DNA of 64,000 nucleotides, from assembly GCA_019058315.1 (NCBI GenBank), contig JAHPZH010000009.1, positions 96,001-160,000 on the forward strand. Reading direction: 5' to 3'. Every line of letters begins with the position of its first letter. Within the stretch, counting starts at the first letter, position 1. The stretch is from Candidatus Helarchaeota archaeon (GTDB lineage Archaea > Asgardarchaeota > Lokiarchaeia > Helarchaeales > RDOG01). The position numbers and the translations under genes were made by a program. Positions 2,509 through 53,538 of the stretch are shown here, piece after piece. The notes under the pieces were generated by a model, which saw only the letters and a program-made list of their open reading frames with translations, was not told the DNA's origin and ran no database searches.

Positions 2509-2610
2509 GCTGGGATAGCCAAGTGGTACGGCGCAGGCCTGGAGCTTCCTTTTAAAAGAAAGCCTGTGATTCTTTGAATCGCGAGGGTTCAAATCCCTCT
2601 CCCAGCGCCA
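2509..2610 (+). tRNA. tRNA-Ser(GGA) with a 16-nt intron at 37/38 (2545-2560)
   Basis: Acceptor GCTGGGA/TCCCAGC, G73 + encoded CCA, anticodon stem CAGGC/GCCTG, loop CT-GGA-G|A after intron removal, long variable arm GATTC/GAATC, T-arm GAGGG-TTCAAAT-CCCTC. Confidence 0.9.
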
Positions 2611-42419: not shown

Positions 42420-43233
42420 TATATATCCTCCTCCTTTGATATTTCAGTTTCAATTTCTTTATCAAGTTGACTATATTTTCCCTTTATCGTCTGAATTTGA
42501 ATTTCATTTAATTTTTCAATTCCTTTTTCAGCAATATCCAAGGCTTTACGCATTTCATCAAATGTTATTTGACCATCAAATTGCAAAAGTGTATATGATT
42601 TAGATCGTGGCATCATTGCAATTGGTAAATCTCCCAAACCTTCTTTATCTTCAACATCCGATAAATCTAGAACTAATGTGGGTGGATCAGGATTTGCAAT
42701 TTTACCTACTGCTACACCACAAACAAGGTCGCGTAATGATATTCCAGCATCCGCTAGAGCTAAAGAAGCCGCAGTAACCGCAGCACAACGTGTACCACCA
42801 TCTGCACAAAGGACTTGGATAAAAACATCTATTATAGTTTTTGGATAATATTCAAGAAATATTGATGATTCCAAAGCTTGTCGTAAAATTAGCGAAAGTT
42901 CGACTTCCCTTCTAGATGGGGCAGGAGATTTTCTCTCATCTACTTTATTCCAAATTATTCACTCGGTATAATTTAAGCGAACGTAGCCATGCGATAAAGT
43001 ACTCGCAAAACTGCCGCATCTTGACGGGCTAAATGACGAGGGTGAACTTCACGTGGTCCATAAACTGCGACCAAAATTTTATTCTTTCCCATATTTATTA
43101 AAGCAGAACCATCTGCTTTTGTTAATAATCCCATCTCCATTGAGACTGGTCTTAATTCATCATATTTCCTATTATCTGTTCTTATTCCATCCCTAATTAA
43201 CCAATCAGCTGGGACTTGTTTAAAAAGTGCCAT
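42419..43233 (-). CDS. rrp41: Exosome complex subunit Rrp41, two exons (43233-42977 and 42944-42419), about 260 aa after splicing
   Basis: Exon 1 ADGSA...VYGPRE...YRMATF; exon 2 VDERKSPAPSRREVELS...ADGGTRCA...ED..G.GD; removing 42945-42976 joins them in frame. Confidence 0.92.
42945..42976 (-). other. 32-nt bulge-helix-bulge intron in rrp41 mRNA
   Basis: Exon stem CTAC/GTAG, central helix GTTC/GAAT, bulges GC|T and AA|A, intron stem TAAATTAT/ATAATTTG. Confidence 0.88.
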
Positions 43234-47002: not shown

Positions 47003-47710
47003 ATGGGTAACACTGAACTCTTAGTAGTATTATATATGTTATTGACTCGACCAAGGGGTTTTCCATTATTCGATTACTTTGCTGATAATGCAGCTGGGAT
47101 GTTAGCATTAGGAGGTCTCTTTGCTGGATTTTGGTTTATTGATTGGATAATTAGGCACCCCGAAGCTGAGGAAGAAAGACCTGCATATTTAGTAGCTATT
47201 GATATCATCGGGTTTTTTATTGGAATCATCTGTTTAGGCAGTGGGATCACTTTATTGTTGAATGGACAAGATCCAATAACTGAAGCTATCGGTGGATTTA
47301 TAGGGGGTAAACATGATATTTTTACGAAGGGTCTGATTATAGCAGTCGGTTTATGTTTATTCTTAAAACCAATTAAAGATATTCCTTGGGCAAGTTTGAT
47401 TGCAATGATCGCTGGCGCTGTAGTTGTTTTTCTTGCAATAACTTATCTTGAAACTACCTTTACACAGCTTGCTGGACTTTTAGGTATTGATGTAAAACTT
47501 CTTTATGGTATCATTTTCGTATTAGTATATGGTATTATATTCAGTATGTTCGGTTTAGCTCAATATATTCTACGTATAGTAGCTACAATATTAAGTTCAA
47601 GACCAGGTTCATTTGTTTTATTTGTATTATGCATGATTCAAGCATTATTGATTATCTTGCCACCCCATCCAGACGCTTATAGTCTTGCTCCACTCTTTGG
47701 ATTAACCTAA
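47003..47710 (+). CDS. Hypothetical polytopic membrane protein
   Basis: 6-7 hydrophobic segments. Confidence 0.7.
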   Translation: MGNTELLVVLYMLLTRPRGFPLFDYFADNAAGMLALGGLFAGFWFIDWIIRHPEAEEERPAYLVAIDIIGFFIGIICLGSGITLLLNGQDPITEAIGGFIGGKHDIFTKGLIIAVGLCLFLKPIKDIPWASLIAMIAGAVVVFLAITYLETTFTQLAGLLGIDVKLLYGIIFVLVYGIIFSMFGLAQYILRIVATILSSRPGSFVLFVLCMIQALLIILPPHPDAYSLAPLFGLT

Positions 47711-48352
47711 TCTACCTTTTAATTTTATTTTTGTTAAATACTGATAAGTCAGTGTTTGGCTAGGTGATTTTAAAAAAAGAAAAAGATCTTTAGGTAAATC
47801 AATATCTAATCCAAAATTTTTAGAATTATGTATTATTAAATTGTGATTTTTTACATTACGAGCTTTCTCAATATGTTTTTGAAAACTATTTTCACCATAT
47901 TCAATTTTAATTATGTCAGAAGGCATTAGAAATAAAAGATTAGTACCATTCTTTCTTAAAGATGGAGATATTATAATTGTAGGTGGGTTGATTTCATAAT
48001 TAAATATCTCATCAATATCGTTTGAGGTTATAAGTGGAATATCTCCAGGAATTATTAAAACTGAATTTGCATTTTTTTTGATTGCAAATTCTATAGCAGA
48101 ATTTATTGATTCATTTATATTTGTTTCCATTTGCTCGCTTATTATATCTCCAAATTGAGAACCAATATCTAATATCATTGGATCAGAAGAGATTGTAACA
48201 ATTTTATTGGTTTTTTGAGTTGCACTTGCTGCCTGTATTACATCTTTAAACATATTGATACATAGTTTTTTTCTCTGTTCAGAGTTTAAAATGGAATTTA
48301 GTCTTAACTTTGCGAATTCTAGAGATTTAACCGGGATAATTATAAAATTCAT
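47702..48352 (-). CDS. cofC: 2-phospho-L-lactate guanylyltransferase (F420 biosynthesis)
   Basis: IIPVK...AKLRL, PGDIPL, GTNLL, YGENSF..H, DIDLPKDL. Confidence 0.9.
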   Translation of the reverse strand: MNFIIIPVKSLEFAKLRLNSILNSEQRKKLCINMFKDVIQAASATQKTNKIVTISSDPMILDIGSQFGDIISEQMETNINESINSAIEFAIKKNANSVLIIPGDIPLITSNDIDEIFNYEINPPTIIISPSLRKNGTNLLFLMPSDIIKIEYGENSFQKHIEKARNVKNHNLIIHNSKNFGLDIDLPKDLFLFLKSPSQTLTYQYLTKIKLKGRLG

Positions 48353-49303
48353 TCATCCCACATTTAATTTCATCGCATCTAATGTAATTTGTGCTAAGTT
48401 TTTCTTAATTTCTAAATTCTTCATTAAAGTATTAGTAATTATTACTTTAATTCCTAATTTTTCAATTTCACTTTTTCTATCTTTATCAATTTCATCAATA
48501 ACAAATGTCTTAATCAAGTTTTTATAGAATTTTGCTACGCCAAAACAAGAAACTTCCATTCCTAAACCCTTCATGAGCCTATCAAGAGGTCCTTTTACTG
48601 GTTTATTTCCTATTATTGGACTTATTCCAATAATTGGTTTATCAATTTGTTCTAAAGCCAATTTAATTTCCTTAATGGATAAAATAGTATTTATACTCAC
48701 AAGTGGATTACTAGGACCTATTAATATCCCTTCAGCATTCTTAATTATATCCAATATCCCATTTGTAGGTTTAGCATCTTCAGCTCCCTCATAAATAATT
48801 TCTAAAACTTTATCTTGTGCTTTTCTCTCAATCATATATTCTTCAAAATGAATAATACCATCTGGAGTTCTAATTTTGGTCATGACCTTTTGATTAGTCA
48901 TTGGAATTAAATTTACTTCAACTCCAAGATGTTGACATAATTTTTTAGTAATTTCAGAAAGTTTTAACCCCGATTTTAATAAATTAGTTCTATAAATATG
49001 CGTTGCTAAATCTTTATCTCCCAGTTTAAACCATGTATCTTGTTTATACCTACTTAGCATTTCTAGGCAATTTGTAGTATCATTATCTATTCCCCAACCT
49101 TGCATTTTATCTACAATTCCAGAAAGAGTATACATAATTATATCTAAATCTGGTGAGATTGAAAGACCATATAGCTCAAAGTCATCAGCTGTATTTACTA
49201 TAACGTATAAATCTTTTGGGTTCACTATTTGAACCAATCCTTGGAGAAATCTTGCCGCACCTACTCCACCGGCTAAAACTACAATCAAACAGATTGCCCC
49301 CAT
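48353..49303 (-). CDS. cofD: 2-phospho-L-lactate transferase
   Basis: LAGGVGAARF, ISPDLD, WFKLGDKDLATH, GPSNPLVSI. Confidence 0.94.
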   Translation of the reverse strand: MGAICLIVVLAGGVGAARFLQGLVQIVNPKDLYVIVNTADDFELYGLSISPDLDIIMYTLSGIVDKMQGWGIDNDTTNCLEMLSRYKQDTWFKLGDKDLATHIYRTNLLKSGLKLSEITKKLCQHLGVEVNLIPMTNQKVMTKIRTPDGIIHFEEYMIERKAQDKVLEIIYEGAEDAKPTNGILDIIKNAEGILIGPSNPLVSINTILSIKEIKLALEQIDKPIIGISPIIGNKPVKGPLDRLMKGLGMEVSCFGVAKFYKNLIKTFVIDEIDKDRKSEIEKLGIKVIITNTLMKNLEIKKNLAQITLDAMKLNVG

Positions 49304-49902
49304 TTATTTTTAAAAGTAATTTTTTTAATTTCTATCCTTGAAGGCGGTGAAGGGGTTTCATCTGGATAACCAACTGTTATAAAAGCTTGAGGATCATGGT
49401 CTTTAGGTATACCCAATACTTTACGAACTATATCCTGACAAAATAATGGAGCACAATACCAACAGCACCCAAAACCATTTGTATAACTGACTAAGAGAAA
49501 ATTTTGTATTGCTGCACTTACACTTTGGATTGCCATAATATATTCTGCATTTTGTCTTTTTTTATCAGGATATTTATGCATTCTTTCCATTGATAGACAT
49601 GGGATTAAGATAATTGGTGCTGCTGTAAATTTTCTGATTGATTCTTCAATAATATCTTTTCTAGATGGCTCTGCAATTTGATCTTTTTCTAGATCGTTCT
49701 CATATTCTTCTGCCATTTTTTTAACTAATTCAGATTTTACTTGAGGATCTTCGATAATTAAAAAATAATATGGCATTGCATTATGTGCTGAAGGTGCCCA
49801 AATAGAAAATTCTAGAATTTCTACTATTTTAGAAATATCAATTGGGTTTTTTTTATATTTTCTAATACTTCTTCTTAATTTTATTACATCTTTTATATCC
49901 AA
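49285..49902 (-). CDS. Nitroreductase family protein (FbiB C-terminal-like)
   Basis: RRSIRKY, WAPSAHN, AAIQNFLL, CWYCAPLF, GYP; start placed at TTG 49902. Confidence 0.85.
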   Translation of the reverse strand: MDIKDVIKLRRSIRKYKKNPIDISKIVEILEFSIWAPSAHNAMPYYFLIIEDPQVKSELVKKMAEEYENDLEKDQIAEPSRKDIIEESIRKFTAAPIILIPCLSMERMHKYPDKKRQNAEYIMAIQSVSAAIQNFLLVSYTNGFGCCWYCAPLFCQDIVRKVLGIPKDHDPQAFITVGYPDETPSPPSRIEIKKITFKNKWGQSV

Positions 49903-50080
49903 TATTAAAAACCCCAATAGTAAAAGGTCATTAAACTTGAATAAAAAAAAATTTTTAAAAATATTTAACGTCAAAAATCCAAATTTTCAATAATCTGATT
50001 TAAAAAATGAGTAAAAAAGCATATTTTATTATTTAATTCCCCTATTTTATTAAATTTAAATCAATTTAGATCAAAATTAG

Positions 50081-50149
50081 GGATCAAATCGTCGCAGAGC
50101 TCATCATCAGTGTTGGATTTTTTCAGCTTGGGGCGACGATATCATTTCC
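50081..50149 (-). ncRNA. Candidate box C/D guide sRNA (D' guide complementary to the 23S rRNA P-loop, Gm2251 equivalent)
   Basis: GC-rich island in AT-rich intergenic DNA: GGA-A-ATGATAT(C)...CTGA(D')...ATGATGA(C')...TTGA(D)-TCC; guide GTCGCCCCA. Confidence 0.55.
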
Positions 50150-50306
50150 GAGTTATATTTTATTATCTTTAAATTTAAAAATTACGTAATTACGCGCTAT
50201 AAATAAAAAAACTCTGAAATGCAAAAAAAGAATTTTGCAAAAAACATTTAAAATCATATTAATTGGGAAATATAAATTAAAAATGAAAAGTCCAGAGGTA
50301 AGTTTT

Positions 50307-51400
50307 ATGGTAAAGACTGGAATAATATATCATGAAGATTATTTAAAACATGATACTGGAGATCATGTTGAAAATAAAAAAAGATTGATTGCCACTTTGG
50401 ATTTATTTAATGAATACAAAATTTTTGAGCATCCTAATATCATTAAGATTTCCCCAAATCCAGCATCTATTAAGGAAATTCAAAGAGTTCATAAAGCATT
50501 TTATATAGAAAAAGTCCGGGAAAAATGTTTAAGTGGTGGGGGCTGGCTTGATGCTGATACAATTGTCTCTCCAGATAGCTACAATGTTGCATTATTAGCT
50601 GCTGGAGGAGCAATACAAGCAGGTGAGATGGCTGTAAAAGGTAAAATTGACAATGCTTTTTGTTTAATACGTCCTCCAGGACATCATGCCGGACCAGGGG
50701 TTGCTAGAGGATTTTGTGTATTTAATAATATTGCCATTGTTGCAAAATCTTTAATTGCGAGGTTTGAAGAGGTCAATAAAGTCTTAATATTTGACCACGA
50801 TGCACATTAAAAAAGAAATTTTCTTTTTTAAGCATATACGCAGGTAATGGAACCTCGCAAATTCTATATAACGATCCAAATGTGCTATTATTTGATTTTC
50901 ACCAACATCCGCGAACACTCTATCCTGGAACAGGTTATATAGATGAAATAGGTGAGGAAGAAGGAAAGGGATATAATATAAATTTACCTATGGTTCCCCG
51001 TGCTGGTGATGCTCAATATCTAGAAGTTATTGATGAATTATTCATTCCAATTATTAATCAATTTAAACCTGATATTGTTCTAGTTTCAGCAGGATTTGAT
51101 ACTCATTTTTCTGATCCCATTACACAACTCAATATAACAATTCAAGGATATGGAGAAATCGTTAAAAAAATAAAAAAAGAGGCAAAAAAAGTCTGTGCTG
51201 GGAAAATTATAATTATGCTTGAGGGTGGATATGATTTAAAAGCACTATCTCAGGGAATTCTAACTGAAATATCTGTACTTGGAGATTTAGGTATTGAATT
51301 TATAGAAAATCCTCCTAAAATTGAAGAAGCTATAGTAGATTACAATAGAAAAATGATAGATAAATTAAAAGAAGTTTTAGGTGCTTATTGGAAATTTTAA
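50307..51400 (+). CDS. Histone deacetylase family (HDAC/AcuC) protein, two exons (50307-50805 and 50838-51400), about 353 aa after splicing
   Basis: HVE...RL, RPPGHHA, GFCVFNN, spliced DHDAHAGNGT, YPGTG, SAGFDTH, LEGGY. Confidence 0.92.
50806..50837 (+). other. 32-nt bulge-helix-bulge intron in HDAC mRNA
   Basis: Central helix ATGC/GCAT, bulges AC|A and AT|A, intron stem TTAAAAAAGA/TCTTTTTTAA, exon pairing CG/CG plus ACC/GGT. Confidence 0.88.
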
Positions 51401-51438
51401 ATAATTGAGAAATATAGACTTTGGAGAATTTTAAATAA

Positions 51439-53067
51439 ATGTTTGAAATTATTGGGAGAGATGGTGCGGGGAGGTTAGGAAAATTAAAAACTGCTCATGG
51501 GACTATTTATACACCTGAATTTATGCCAGTATACAATCATAATCATCCGACAGTTCCAATTGATGATTTTGAAAAAATGAATGTTAATATTTTAATTACA
51601 AATGCCTATATAATAAACCGAACTCCCGAATTAAAAGAGATTGCTGAGAAAGGAATTCATAAATTAATAGATTTCAATAAAATAATTATGACAGATTCTG
51701 GAGCTTATCAAGCATGGATGTATCAAAAAGAGCTTGAAATTACAAATAAAGAAATTATCAATTTTCAAGATAAACTTCAACCAGACATTGCAACAATTTT
51801 AGATTTTTTTACAGAAACCAATTCATATTCTATTGCGAAAGAAGGTGTAGAAAAAACTATTAAAAATGCAAAAGAATGTATAAAAATTAGAAAAAAGGAT
51901 TCAAAGATTCTTTGGGCTGCACCAATTCAAGGAGGTCAGTTTCTAGATTTATTGGGGTATTGTGCAGAAGAATTATCTAAACTTGATTTTGATTTTCACC
52001 CCTTAGGAACACTCGCACCCGCACTACTTAATTATAATTTTAAAAAAGTAGCTGAAACAATTGCAGTAACAAAAAAGTATTTAATTCCATCAAGACCATT
52101 ACATGCATTTTCAATTGGACATCCGATCTTTTTTTCATTAGCAGTAGCTCTAGGAGCTGATTTATTTGATTCTTCTTCCTATGCTTTATTCGCAAAAGAA
52201 AATAGATACTTAACAGTAAATGGTACTTTAAGACTCGAAAATATAATATCAGAATTTCCTTGTTCTTGTCCAATTTGTTTAAAATTTACTCCGGAAGAGT
52301 TAAAAAGTAAAGAAAAATTAGAAAAGGAAAAATTGTTAGCTAAACATAATTTATATGTGTGTTTAGAGGAGATGAAACGAATCAGATTTGCTATTAGGGA
52401 AGGTAAGTTATGGGACTTAATTCAAATAAGAATTCAGTCCCATCCTAGATTAGCAGAAGCTTATTATCATGTAATTAACAAATATAAAGAGCTCCTAGAA
52501 CGCTTCGAGCCATTAACCAAACATTCTGCGATTTTCATTACAGATTCAAGTTCTTTAAACCGTCCAGAAGTATTTCGCTACCAAGAAAACTTAAAAAAAT
52601 ATTATCAAGTCCCAAAAAGTGTAAAATATTTAATTCTATTGCCAGATTTAAGGAATATTTTATTCTATAATAAGAAATTTCAGAATATTCAAAATACAAT
52701 CAACGAAATTACTGAAAAAAATAGACCATATTTTCAAATATGTCTAATATCACCCGTATTTGGAATTATTCCAGAAGAATTAAAAGAAATATATCCCCTA
52801 TCGCAATTTGTTTATTCTCAAATAATCAATATGGATTTCATTATCCATAATCAACAAATTATTGAACAATTTATTACTCGTCATAAGAAAAATTATGAAG
52901 AAATAGTATTATACAGACCAAAAGAATTATTCATGGAAGATATAAATAAATCTTTACTGAGTAACCTTACAATAAATAAAATATCTACCGAAATTAAGGT
53001 AGCTATTGTAAATGATGAAGTTCAACTATATGAAAAAATTAAAAAATTAAATCAAAATAAATTTTAG
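51439..53067 (+). CDS. tgtA: Archaeosine tRNA-guanine(15) transglycosylase
   Basis: GRLGKL.T, MTDSGAYQ, PIQGG, DLFDSSSY, PCSCPIC, HNL. Confidence 0.93.
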   Translation: MFEIIGRDGAGRLGKLKTAHGTIYTPEFMPVYNHNHPTVPIDDFEKMNVNILITNAYIINRTPELKEIAEKGIHKLIDFNKIIMTDSGAYQAWMYQKELEITNKEIINFQDKLQPDIATILDFFTETNSYSIAKEGVEKTIKNAKECIKIRKKDSKILWAAPIQGGQFLDLLGYCAEELSKLDFDFHPLGTLAPALLNYNFKKVAETIAVTKKYLIPSRPLHAFSIGHPIFFSLAVALGADLFDSSSYALFAKENRYLTVNGTLRLENIISEFPCSCPICLKFTPEELKSKEKLEKEKLLAKHNLYVCLEEMKRIRFAIREGKLWDLIQIRIQSHPRLAEAYYHVINKYKELLERFEPLTKHSAIFITDSSSLNRPEVFRYQENLKKYYQVPKSVKYLILLPDLRNILFYNKKFQNIQNTINEITEKNRPYFQICLISPVFGIIPEELKEIYPLSQFVYSQIINMDFIIHNQQIIEQFITRHKKNYEEIVLYRPKELFMEDINKSLLSNLTINKISTEIKVAIVNDEVQLYEKIKKLNQNKF

Positions 53068-53091
53068 AAAATAGAAAATGGAGTAATTGAA

Positions 53092-53538
53092 ATGAGTCAG
53101 ACGGCTGAAAGCCGATTTTTTAAAGAAATGGCAGGTTTATTAAACGCTAAAGTAAAAGTTATTACTTCAGATAAAATCTATGAAGGTACGTTATTAGGAT
53201 GGGATCGGAAAAGTATGAGTGTCTGTTTAGGTTCTGCCGAAGATGATGAAGGGCGTGAATATCCTAAAATAATTATATATGGCAATACGATTTTGGAACT
53301 AATCGAGACAGGTAGGGCTTTTGACTTAAAAGCACTATCAGAAGATCTGGCAAAATTGTTTCCAAAAGGTGAAGTTCAATATAGCCCTGAAGCTCGTGTA
53401 ATAATGGTTCTTAATAAAATCAAAGTAACCGAATTTGGTGTAGAAGGATCCGGTCCTTTAGCTGAAAGAATACGTAATGTTTATGAGAGATTTCTTGAAG
53501 AACACGAAAGTGAAGTTGAAATAGAAGAAGAAGTATGA
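53092..53538 (+). CDS. Lsm/SmAP3-like protein (Sm domain plus C-terminal domain)
   Basis: YEGTLLGWD Sm1 motif; C-terminal [17 protein letters not shown]. Confidence 0.85.

Follow-up and report, generated by a model that had tools for sequence, protein, structure and literature searches.

A predicted EndA/RtcB-spliced intron in the mRNA of an HDAC-family gene of an Asgard archaeon

In Crenarchaeota, the pre-mRNA of cbf5, the pseudouridine synthase gene, contains a BHB intron (Watanabe 2002; Yoshinari 2006; Yokobori 2009, PMC2738675). This intron was called the sole one of its kind in archaeal mRNA as late as 2020 (PMC7714728), and in the papers of 2025-2026 covered by our literature search cbf5 is still the only archaeal mRNA intron cited. 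In Haloferax volcanii, the HVO_1309 mRNA has a BHB intron in the 5' UTR, which is a substrate of the endonuclease both in vivo and in vitro (PMC7714728). BHB introns are also known from Asgard tRNAs; Asgard lineages are rich in them, and most have two EndA paralogs (PMC11291895; bioRxiv 10.64898/2026.10.13.758758). Neither of these two studies reports introns in protein-coding genes, and no Asgard mRNA introns are mentioned in the literature up to 2026 on Asgard tRNA introns and EndA structure that we searched.

Here, we analyze a window of 64,000 nt (G000:C10:96001-160000) from the archaeal assembly G000, which has a length of 5.79 Mb and a G+C content of 30%; positions are those of the window unless another contig is named. 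The segment 50806-50837 on the forward strand is very probably an mRNA intron of an HDAC-family gene spliced by EndA and RtcB, with cleavage, ligation and circularisation predicted from sequence. Like the HVO_1309 intron, it would be an mRNA substrate of the archaeal splicing endonuclease, whereas the HVO_1309 intron lies in an untranslated leader and interrupts neither a codon nor a frame. With the Asgard tRNA introns, the segment shares the motif, the size class (tens of bases, AT-rich hairpins) and the presumed enzymes. Unlike them, it has an mRNA host, the exon half of its motif comes from coding sequence, and its excision must restore the frame.

The interrupted HDAC-family gene

The gene is found as two open frames on the forward strand. 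The N-terminal ORF (50307-50810) ends with FDHDAH followed by TAA, and the C-terminal frame, read from 50840, begins with AGNGTSQILY and runs to 51400. Both halves match the Hist_deacetyl profile PF00850, with E = 2.8e-37 and 5.3e-48, respectively. Exon 1 (50307-50805), which extends from the ATG to C, the first base of a split His codon, covers profile positions 1-152, and its start aligns with the starts of the orthologs. Exon 2 (50838-51400), consisting of the last two bases of this codon, AC, and then the frame of AGNGTSQ to the stop, covers profile positions 154-295. Therefore, nothing is missing at the junction.

Deletion of 50806-50837 yields DHDAHAGNGTSQILY, rebuilds the codon as C|AC and produces a protein of 353 aa. 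The predicted spliced junction is GATGCAC|ACGCAGGTAAT, and the predicted peptide segment spanning it is DHDAHAGNGTSQ. In the spliced product the catalytic motifs are intact, including PPGHHA with the His-His pair, DHDAH, GFDTH with the second Asp ligand, and EGGY with the catalytic Tyr. The closest solved structures are the HDAC6 catalytic domains and bacterial HDAH-type amidohydrolases. The split codon is assigned to the zinc-ligand His because DHDAHAGNG of the deacetylase aligns with DWDVHHGNG of HDAC6 CD2; in this family, the residue is the His of the Asp-x-His zinc-ligand pair. Thus the homology to the HDAC6 CD2 motif bears out the original prediction, in which the intron divided the codon for the zinc-ligand His and its excision rebuilt C|AC in frame.

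In the clade of this deacetylase, including the orthologs L002-L004, the zinc-ligand His is followed by Ala (HAGNG) in place of the usual His-His of the family (HHGNG).

Three other HDAC-family matches were found in the genome, all of them distant (31-40% identity), and an intact close paralog is absent. Since the remaining matches are that distant, the gene at 50307-51400 is the only ortholog in the genome.

Predicted fold, cut sites and splicing enzymes

The segment 50794-50845 reads, in order, ACCACG, ATGC, ACA, an 11-bp A-T stem with a 3-nt loop, GCAT, ATA and CGCAGGT. The central helix is formed by ATGC of exon 1 (50800-50803; invariant in three lineages) and GCAT of the intron (50832-50835), and has four base pairs. 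It is bordered by the 5' bulge ACA (50804-50806) and the 3' bulge ATA (50836-50838; TTA in the lineage L098 described below). Between the two strands of the central helix lies the inner helix h' (50807-50831), comprised of a perfect 11-bp stem (50807-50817 paired with 50821-50831) and a 3-nt loop (50818-50820). The outer helix h pairs ACC.CG of exon 1 (50794-50799) with CG..GGT of exon 2 (50839-50845). In-frame TAA stands directly after the split codon (50808-50810), is conserved in L096 and L098, and would end the translation of unspliced RNA. The elements of an EndA substrate are therefore all present: a 4-bp central helix, two 3-nt bulges on opposite strands, and the flanking helices h and h'.

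In RNAfold predictions, the minimum free energy (MFE) structure contains the central 4-bp helix, the 5' bulge and the inner stem (z = -3.66), and none of 200 shuffled sequences folds as well. The complete hBHBh' structure becomes the MFE structure once 12-nt flanks are included, and the RNAalifold consensus over three lineages is the canonical hBHBh'. Sequence, coordinates and folding thus agree with the BHB proposed at the outset, with its ATGC/GCAT helix, two 3-nt bulges and 32-nt removal, the inner stem being 11 bp long in our reading. The outer exon pairing, also part of that proposal, was recovered in the MFE structure with 12-nt flanks and in the consensus, but not as one continuous helix. 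It is weak, with 2 bp, a mismatch with one extra base and then 3 bp, and is absent from the MFE structure in the 66-nt context. Endonucleases of the alpha-beta type accept relaxed motifs (PMC5829648).

By the established cut rule, the exon contributes the 5' strand of the central helix, and the splice site follows the second base of the bulge, as at tRNA position 37/38 (PMC4090602). The geometry and the cut sites of the HDAC insert agree with this canonical rule, with predicted cuts at 50805/50806 and 50837/50838, behind the second base of either bulge. A hand calibration of the rule on the intron of tRNA-Ser(GGA) at 2509-2610 yielded no clean BHB. The position of the cuts is not fixed to the base by protein comparison alone, because moving both by +1 produces an identical mRNA, and moving both by +2 an identical protein. 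This latitude would suit a different process, in which the insert is removed by a nuclease and a ligase other than EndA and RtcB, or is cut elsewhere. However, the HDAC insert matches the geometry of EndA substrates exactly, and this geometry has been conserved. The same layout and rule appear to fit at least four further inserts in mRNAs of the genome, and both EndA types as well as RtcB are encoded; we consider such a process very improbable.

In particular, the genome encodes two EndA paralogs (PF01974), one of 184 aa with the catalytic Tyr, His and Lys (in the region of G000:C12:5422-5676) and one of 204 aa lacking the His (in the region of G000:C1:331438-331698), and one RtcB. Such a pair of a complete and a His-less EndA is as expected for an alpha-beta heterotetramer. 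This type of endonuclease is linked to relaxed substrates (PMC5829648) and to the splicing of cbf5 mRNA (Yoshinari 2006 as cited in PMC12397907). With ARAGORN, 40 tRNA genes were detected in the genome (5.8 Mb), and 16 of these have introns; many others are probably missed owing to multiple or non-canonical introns. The intron-containing tRNA-Ser(GGA) gene on the forward strand of the window (2509-2610) was detected by Rfam, and by ARAGORN only in the intron mode.

We propose that splicing by EndA and RtcB would proceed as follows. The pre-mRNA would fold locally into hBHBh', with the outer helix formed between the exons, the 4-bp ATGC/GCAU helix between exon 1 and the intron, and an 11-bp A-U hairpin within the intron. 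The alpha/beta EndA pair would cut after the second base of each 3-nt bulge (50805|50806 and 50837|50838), and RtcB would ligate the exons, creating the CAC codon for the zinc-ligand His of the 353-aa enzyme. The 32-nt intron would probably be freed as a circle. Unspliced RNA would be translated only up to the UAA three bases into the intron, giving a truncated product of 167 aa. The intron also includes runs of four and six T, a possible signal for transcription termination in archaea.

Lineages with and without the insert

The insert is found at the same place in contigs from an independent study (X2/X3), which represent a strain ca. 97% identical to the window. The hairpin loop has a T>G substitution, and one of the contigs lacks two nucleotides of the hairpin; these are the only changes within the intron. 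The exons differ at 12 positions, with seven synonymous and five conservative changes.

In the X2 contig, the loop substitution and the 2-nt deletion (window 50820-50823) yield a 30-nt intron with an 8-bp stem; with a depth as low as 7x, an assembly error is possible.

A search for proteins of the N-half length yielded two clusters of exactly 167 aa, with 83% and 76% amino acid identity over the N-terminal exon. The corresponding contigs (L096/L097 and L098) come from three further sequencing runs, and all of them carry the insert at the same base. The L096 locus is syntenic, with CofC, CofD, nitroreductase, the two HDAC halves, arcTGT and Lsm. One more contig, P0003/L099, diverges after VALLA, is probably chimeric and was left out. 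An assembly artefact, named in the original prediction as one way in which it could fail, is excluded by the presence of the insert in contigs of another study and of three other sequencing runs. An exact-pattern search for the intron in JGI metagenome contigs gave no matches.

The insert in L096 has 30 nt, because the 5' arm has lost one A and the 3' arm one T, and its stem is a perfect 10-bp helix. The L098 insert has 32 nt; its loop differs at each of the three positions, and its 3' bulge at the first. The loop sequence is different in each lineage, and in the RNAalifold analysis two pairs were changed on both sides and none was broken. This modest covariation suggests that the structure is maintained in the three lineages.

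In all 40 GTDB relatives, from the same family, order and class, the frame is uninterrupted, with lengths of 356-400 aa; named homologs are annotated as Candidatus Helarchaeota. An ortholog alignment, proposed along with the intron as a check on it, has now been made: the spliced product is colinear with these 40 uninterrupted orthologs and aligns with them without gaps, and the closest ones also have the unusual HAGNG. A search of the genome contigs for related loci revealed only distant homologs, all uninterrupted.

Two relatives that are as close as the insert-bearing lineages lack the insert, namely L100 and L101, which are syntenic and intronless and encode 353-aa proteins (P0025 and P0026), with 75% and 70% identity, respectively, in the C-terminal half. 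The L101 junction, GATGCACACGCAGG, is exactly the predicted ligated sequence; the L100 junction is GATGCACATGCAGG. In the HDAC tree, the five lineages form one clade (95/98), and the intronless pair falls inside the intron-bearing lineages (90/94). The nested position of this pair would imply a gain of the intron followed by its precise loss. Still, the AU test did not reject the monophyly of the intron-bearers (p = 0.119), and the tree of CofD and TGT did not resolve the branching of the four lineages. The history thus comprises a single gain or, alternatively, a gain and a later precise loss.

The gene order CofC, CofD, nitroreductase, HDAC, archaeosine TGT and Lsm (window 47702-53538) is shared by the four closest lineages (L096, L100, L101), while other genera of the order lack it.

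The spliced coding sequences of G000 and L096 have dS of 1.02 and dN/dS of 0.157 (0.11 in the N-terminal and 0.21 in the C-terminal exon); for G000 and L098, dN/dS is 0.17. The introns of G000 and L096 differ by one loop substitution and the paired loss of A and T, compared with differences at 56% of synonymous sites. Judged by these substitution patterns, the analysis shows a functional HDAC-family gene. This bears on the possibility that the gene is a pseudogene killed by a small palindromic insertion whose BHB shape is coincidental. The insert does have in-frame TAA and shifts the frame, all 40 GTDB relatives are uninterrupted, and both AT-rich hairpins and loose BHB-like motifs occur frequently in the genome. 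Yet, since both exons of the three insert-bearing lineages are under purifying selection (dN/dS 0.11-0.21 at dS about 1), and since the insert, with its compensatory paired indel, is far more conserved than the synonymous sites, a pseudogene is excluded by this comparison and the insert is shown to be constrained. Moreover, the gene has no further disruption, and there is no intact paralog that could replace it. The insert is single-copy: a blastn-short search of the genome for a second copy found none, with only AT-rich words of at most 18 nt matching. Overall, we regard the loss of the gene as extremely improbable. The absence of other genomic copies also led us to reject a repeat or a mobile element of a MITE family as the source of the insert.

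Translation could, alternatively, continue across the insert without splicing, by a -1 frameshift, stop readthrough or ribosomal bypassing. In G000, the frame of exon 2 is open for 15 codons upstream of the junction, so that a -1 shift before the TAA would yield a continuous polypeptide. In addition, a hairpin with a stop at its foot is found at the take-off site of phage T4 gene 60, and the insert resembles it. However, the frameshifted product would lack the zinc-ligand His and carry about 11 additional residues in the active site, while extra residues are absent from the intronless orthologs. The 30-nt version of L096, being in frame and containing TAA, would need readthrough, and the 32-nt versions a frameshift; therefore, no single recoding mechanism serves both, whereas excision defined by the structure yields an identical junction in every version. 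As for bypassing, the matching take-off and landing codons (GCA...GCA and CAT...CAT) would resume translation in the wrong frame. These observations make recoding highly implausible.

A true split gene, with two polypeptides assembling into the active enzyme, would account for the two ORFs reported by gene callers, both with Hist_deacetyl matches. However, in no lineage does the frame of exon 2 contain ATG, GTG or TTG at the junction or before it, and its first in-frame start is not before codon 15 (codon 51 in L096). The only conserved candidate is codon 51, which has no Shine-Dalgarno-like sequence upstream, yet residues 1-50 (AGNGTSQ...YPGTGY...) are strongly conserved. As there is no usable start before these residues, exon 2 must be translated as the continuation of exon 1. 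The break would also lie in the core of the fold, where it would part the zinc-ligand His from the GNG loop. We therefore consider two separate polypeptides very unlikely. Taken together, the purifying selection, the compensatory indel, the intronless orthologs with the predicted junction and the lack of a start in exon 2 considerably strengthen the interpretation of the insert as an intron.

Other inserts in the genome and known mRNA introns

To estimate how often such structures arise by chance, we searched both strands of the genome (11.6 Mb). Loose BHB-like motifs with minimal helices number about 39,000. With an additional ORF-joining filter there were 200 matches, compared with 159-180 for shifted-junction controls, and this census alone is not discriminating. 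By contrast, only 22 BHBs remain when the inner stem must have 10 bp or more and the length may not exceed 45 nt. The strong BHB of the HDAC-family gene lies within 1 nt of the sole junction restoring both frame and homology, and with only 22 comparable structures in the genome this is far beyond chance. The earlier argument that two independent BHBs, each restoring frame and motif, are unlikely to be accidental is in line with this. The restricted census recovered the HDAC and rrp41 inserts and one HTH-CBS case; most other candidates resembled non-coding frames.

The rrp41 gene, encoding an exosome subunit of the RNase PH type, has a 32-nt BHB insert on the reverse strand (42945-42976), with the Pfam RNase_PH match extending over two ORFs. 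It has the helix GUUC/GAAU, the bulges GCU and AAA, an inner stem of 8 bp and an outer helix of 4 bp, and its excision joins MATFA|VDERK. Our re-reading agrees with the original prediction of an rrp41 intron equal in length to that of the HDAC-family gene and likewise with in-frame TAA at its start (42973-42975, reverse strand).

The other inserts lie outside the window, all on the forward strand. In the RNase Z gene, excision of a 29-nt BHB insert (G000:C6:64108-64136) with the same layout and cut rule restores DCGEGTQ. An HTH(XRE-like)-CBS gene has a 33-nt BHB insert (G000:C5:499169-499201; L116:570-602), identified in the census, with the helix CTAG/CTAG and a 9-bp inner stem. Its excision restores SLIARIETGSVD and joins GVSQSLIAR, I and ETGSVDARLST into a classic HTH motif. 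In a leuC-like gene of the aconitase family, GGD and SHT are separated by a putative insert of 27 nt that contains three in-frame stops (G000:C6, about 232900-232930) and was recognized from the sequence. A search of the genome for PF09754 (PAC2) found five unbroken matches and revealed no intron.

In three of these five predicted mRNA introns, in-frame TAA stands right after the split codon (50808-50810; 42973-42975, reverse strand; G000:C5:499171-499173), and in the remaining two a stop occurs within three codons, although the set of five is not unbiased. The stop behind the 5' splice site may reflect mere AT-richness, or it may be selected for the release of ribosomes from unspliced RNA.

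As a tentative extension, the genus might routinely splice mRNAs with the tRNA machinery, in at least five genes (HDAC-family, rrp41, RNase Z, leuC-like and HTH-CBS), with introns turning over fast among sister species. The nested intronless HDAC alleles would then be precise losses via a spliced-RNA intermediate, and the UAA a selected fail-safe that frees the RNA of ribosomes so that the BHB folds. If true, this lineage would offer a natural setting in which the entry of introns into protein-coding genes, and their exit, can be followed in the archaea most closely related to eukaryotes.

Among the known systems, the cbf5 intron is the most similar. Like the HDAC intron, it is short, has the BHB motif, lies within a protein-coding ORF and must be removed for a full-length protein to be made; its hosts have a hetero-oligomeric (alpha-beta) endonuclease, and its presence varies among related lineages. 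The differences are in the host, an RNA-modification enzyme in Crenarchaeota versus a metabolic or regulatory deacetylase in an Asgard, Helarchaeota-like archaeon, and in the evidence, as cbf5 splicing has been shown experimentally, whereas that of the HDAC-family gene is predicted by sequence comparison. Unlike the cbf5 intron, the HDAC intron splits the codon of a catalytic metal ligand and is accompanied by at least four further predicted mRNA introns in the same genome. Since the host gene is Hist_deacetyl (PF00850) and not cbf5, this is a new host gene for the same mechanism, and not a homolog of the cbf5 intron.

In eukaryotes, the HAC1 and XBP1 mRNAs are spliced under stress regulation by IRE1 and a tRNA ligase (RtcB in metazoa), at sites defined by stem-loops. 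As proposed for the HDAC intron, this splicing is non-spliceosomal, removes a short mRNA intron, changes the frame and uses a tRNA ligase to join the exons. However, the nuclease is IRE1 and not a member of the EndA/Sen family, the motif is different, and stress regulation is a feature of the eukaryotic system.

One consequence is that such genes would be systematically split or truncated by gene callers in Asgard MAGs; another is that some Asgard lineages may regularly rely on EndA/RtcB splicing of mRNA to express their genes. The HDAC intron offers concrete substrates of ∼60 nt and junction sequences for direct tests. It appears to work like the cbf5 intron in a different gene and phylum, and the HTH-CBS case appears to be new. 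Next to cbf5, it would stand as a second type with comparatively good support, located in a catalytic codon of an enzyme gene of an Asgard archaeon, with sister lineages that have and lack the intron and with companion cases in the same genome.
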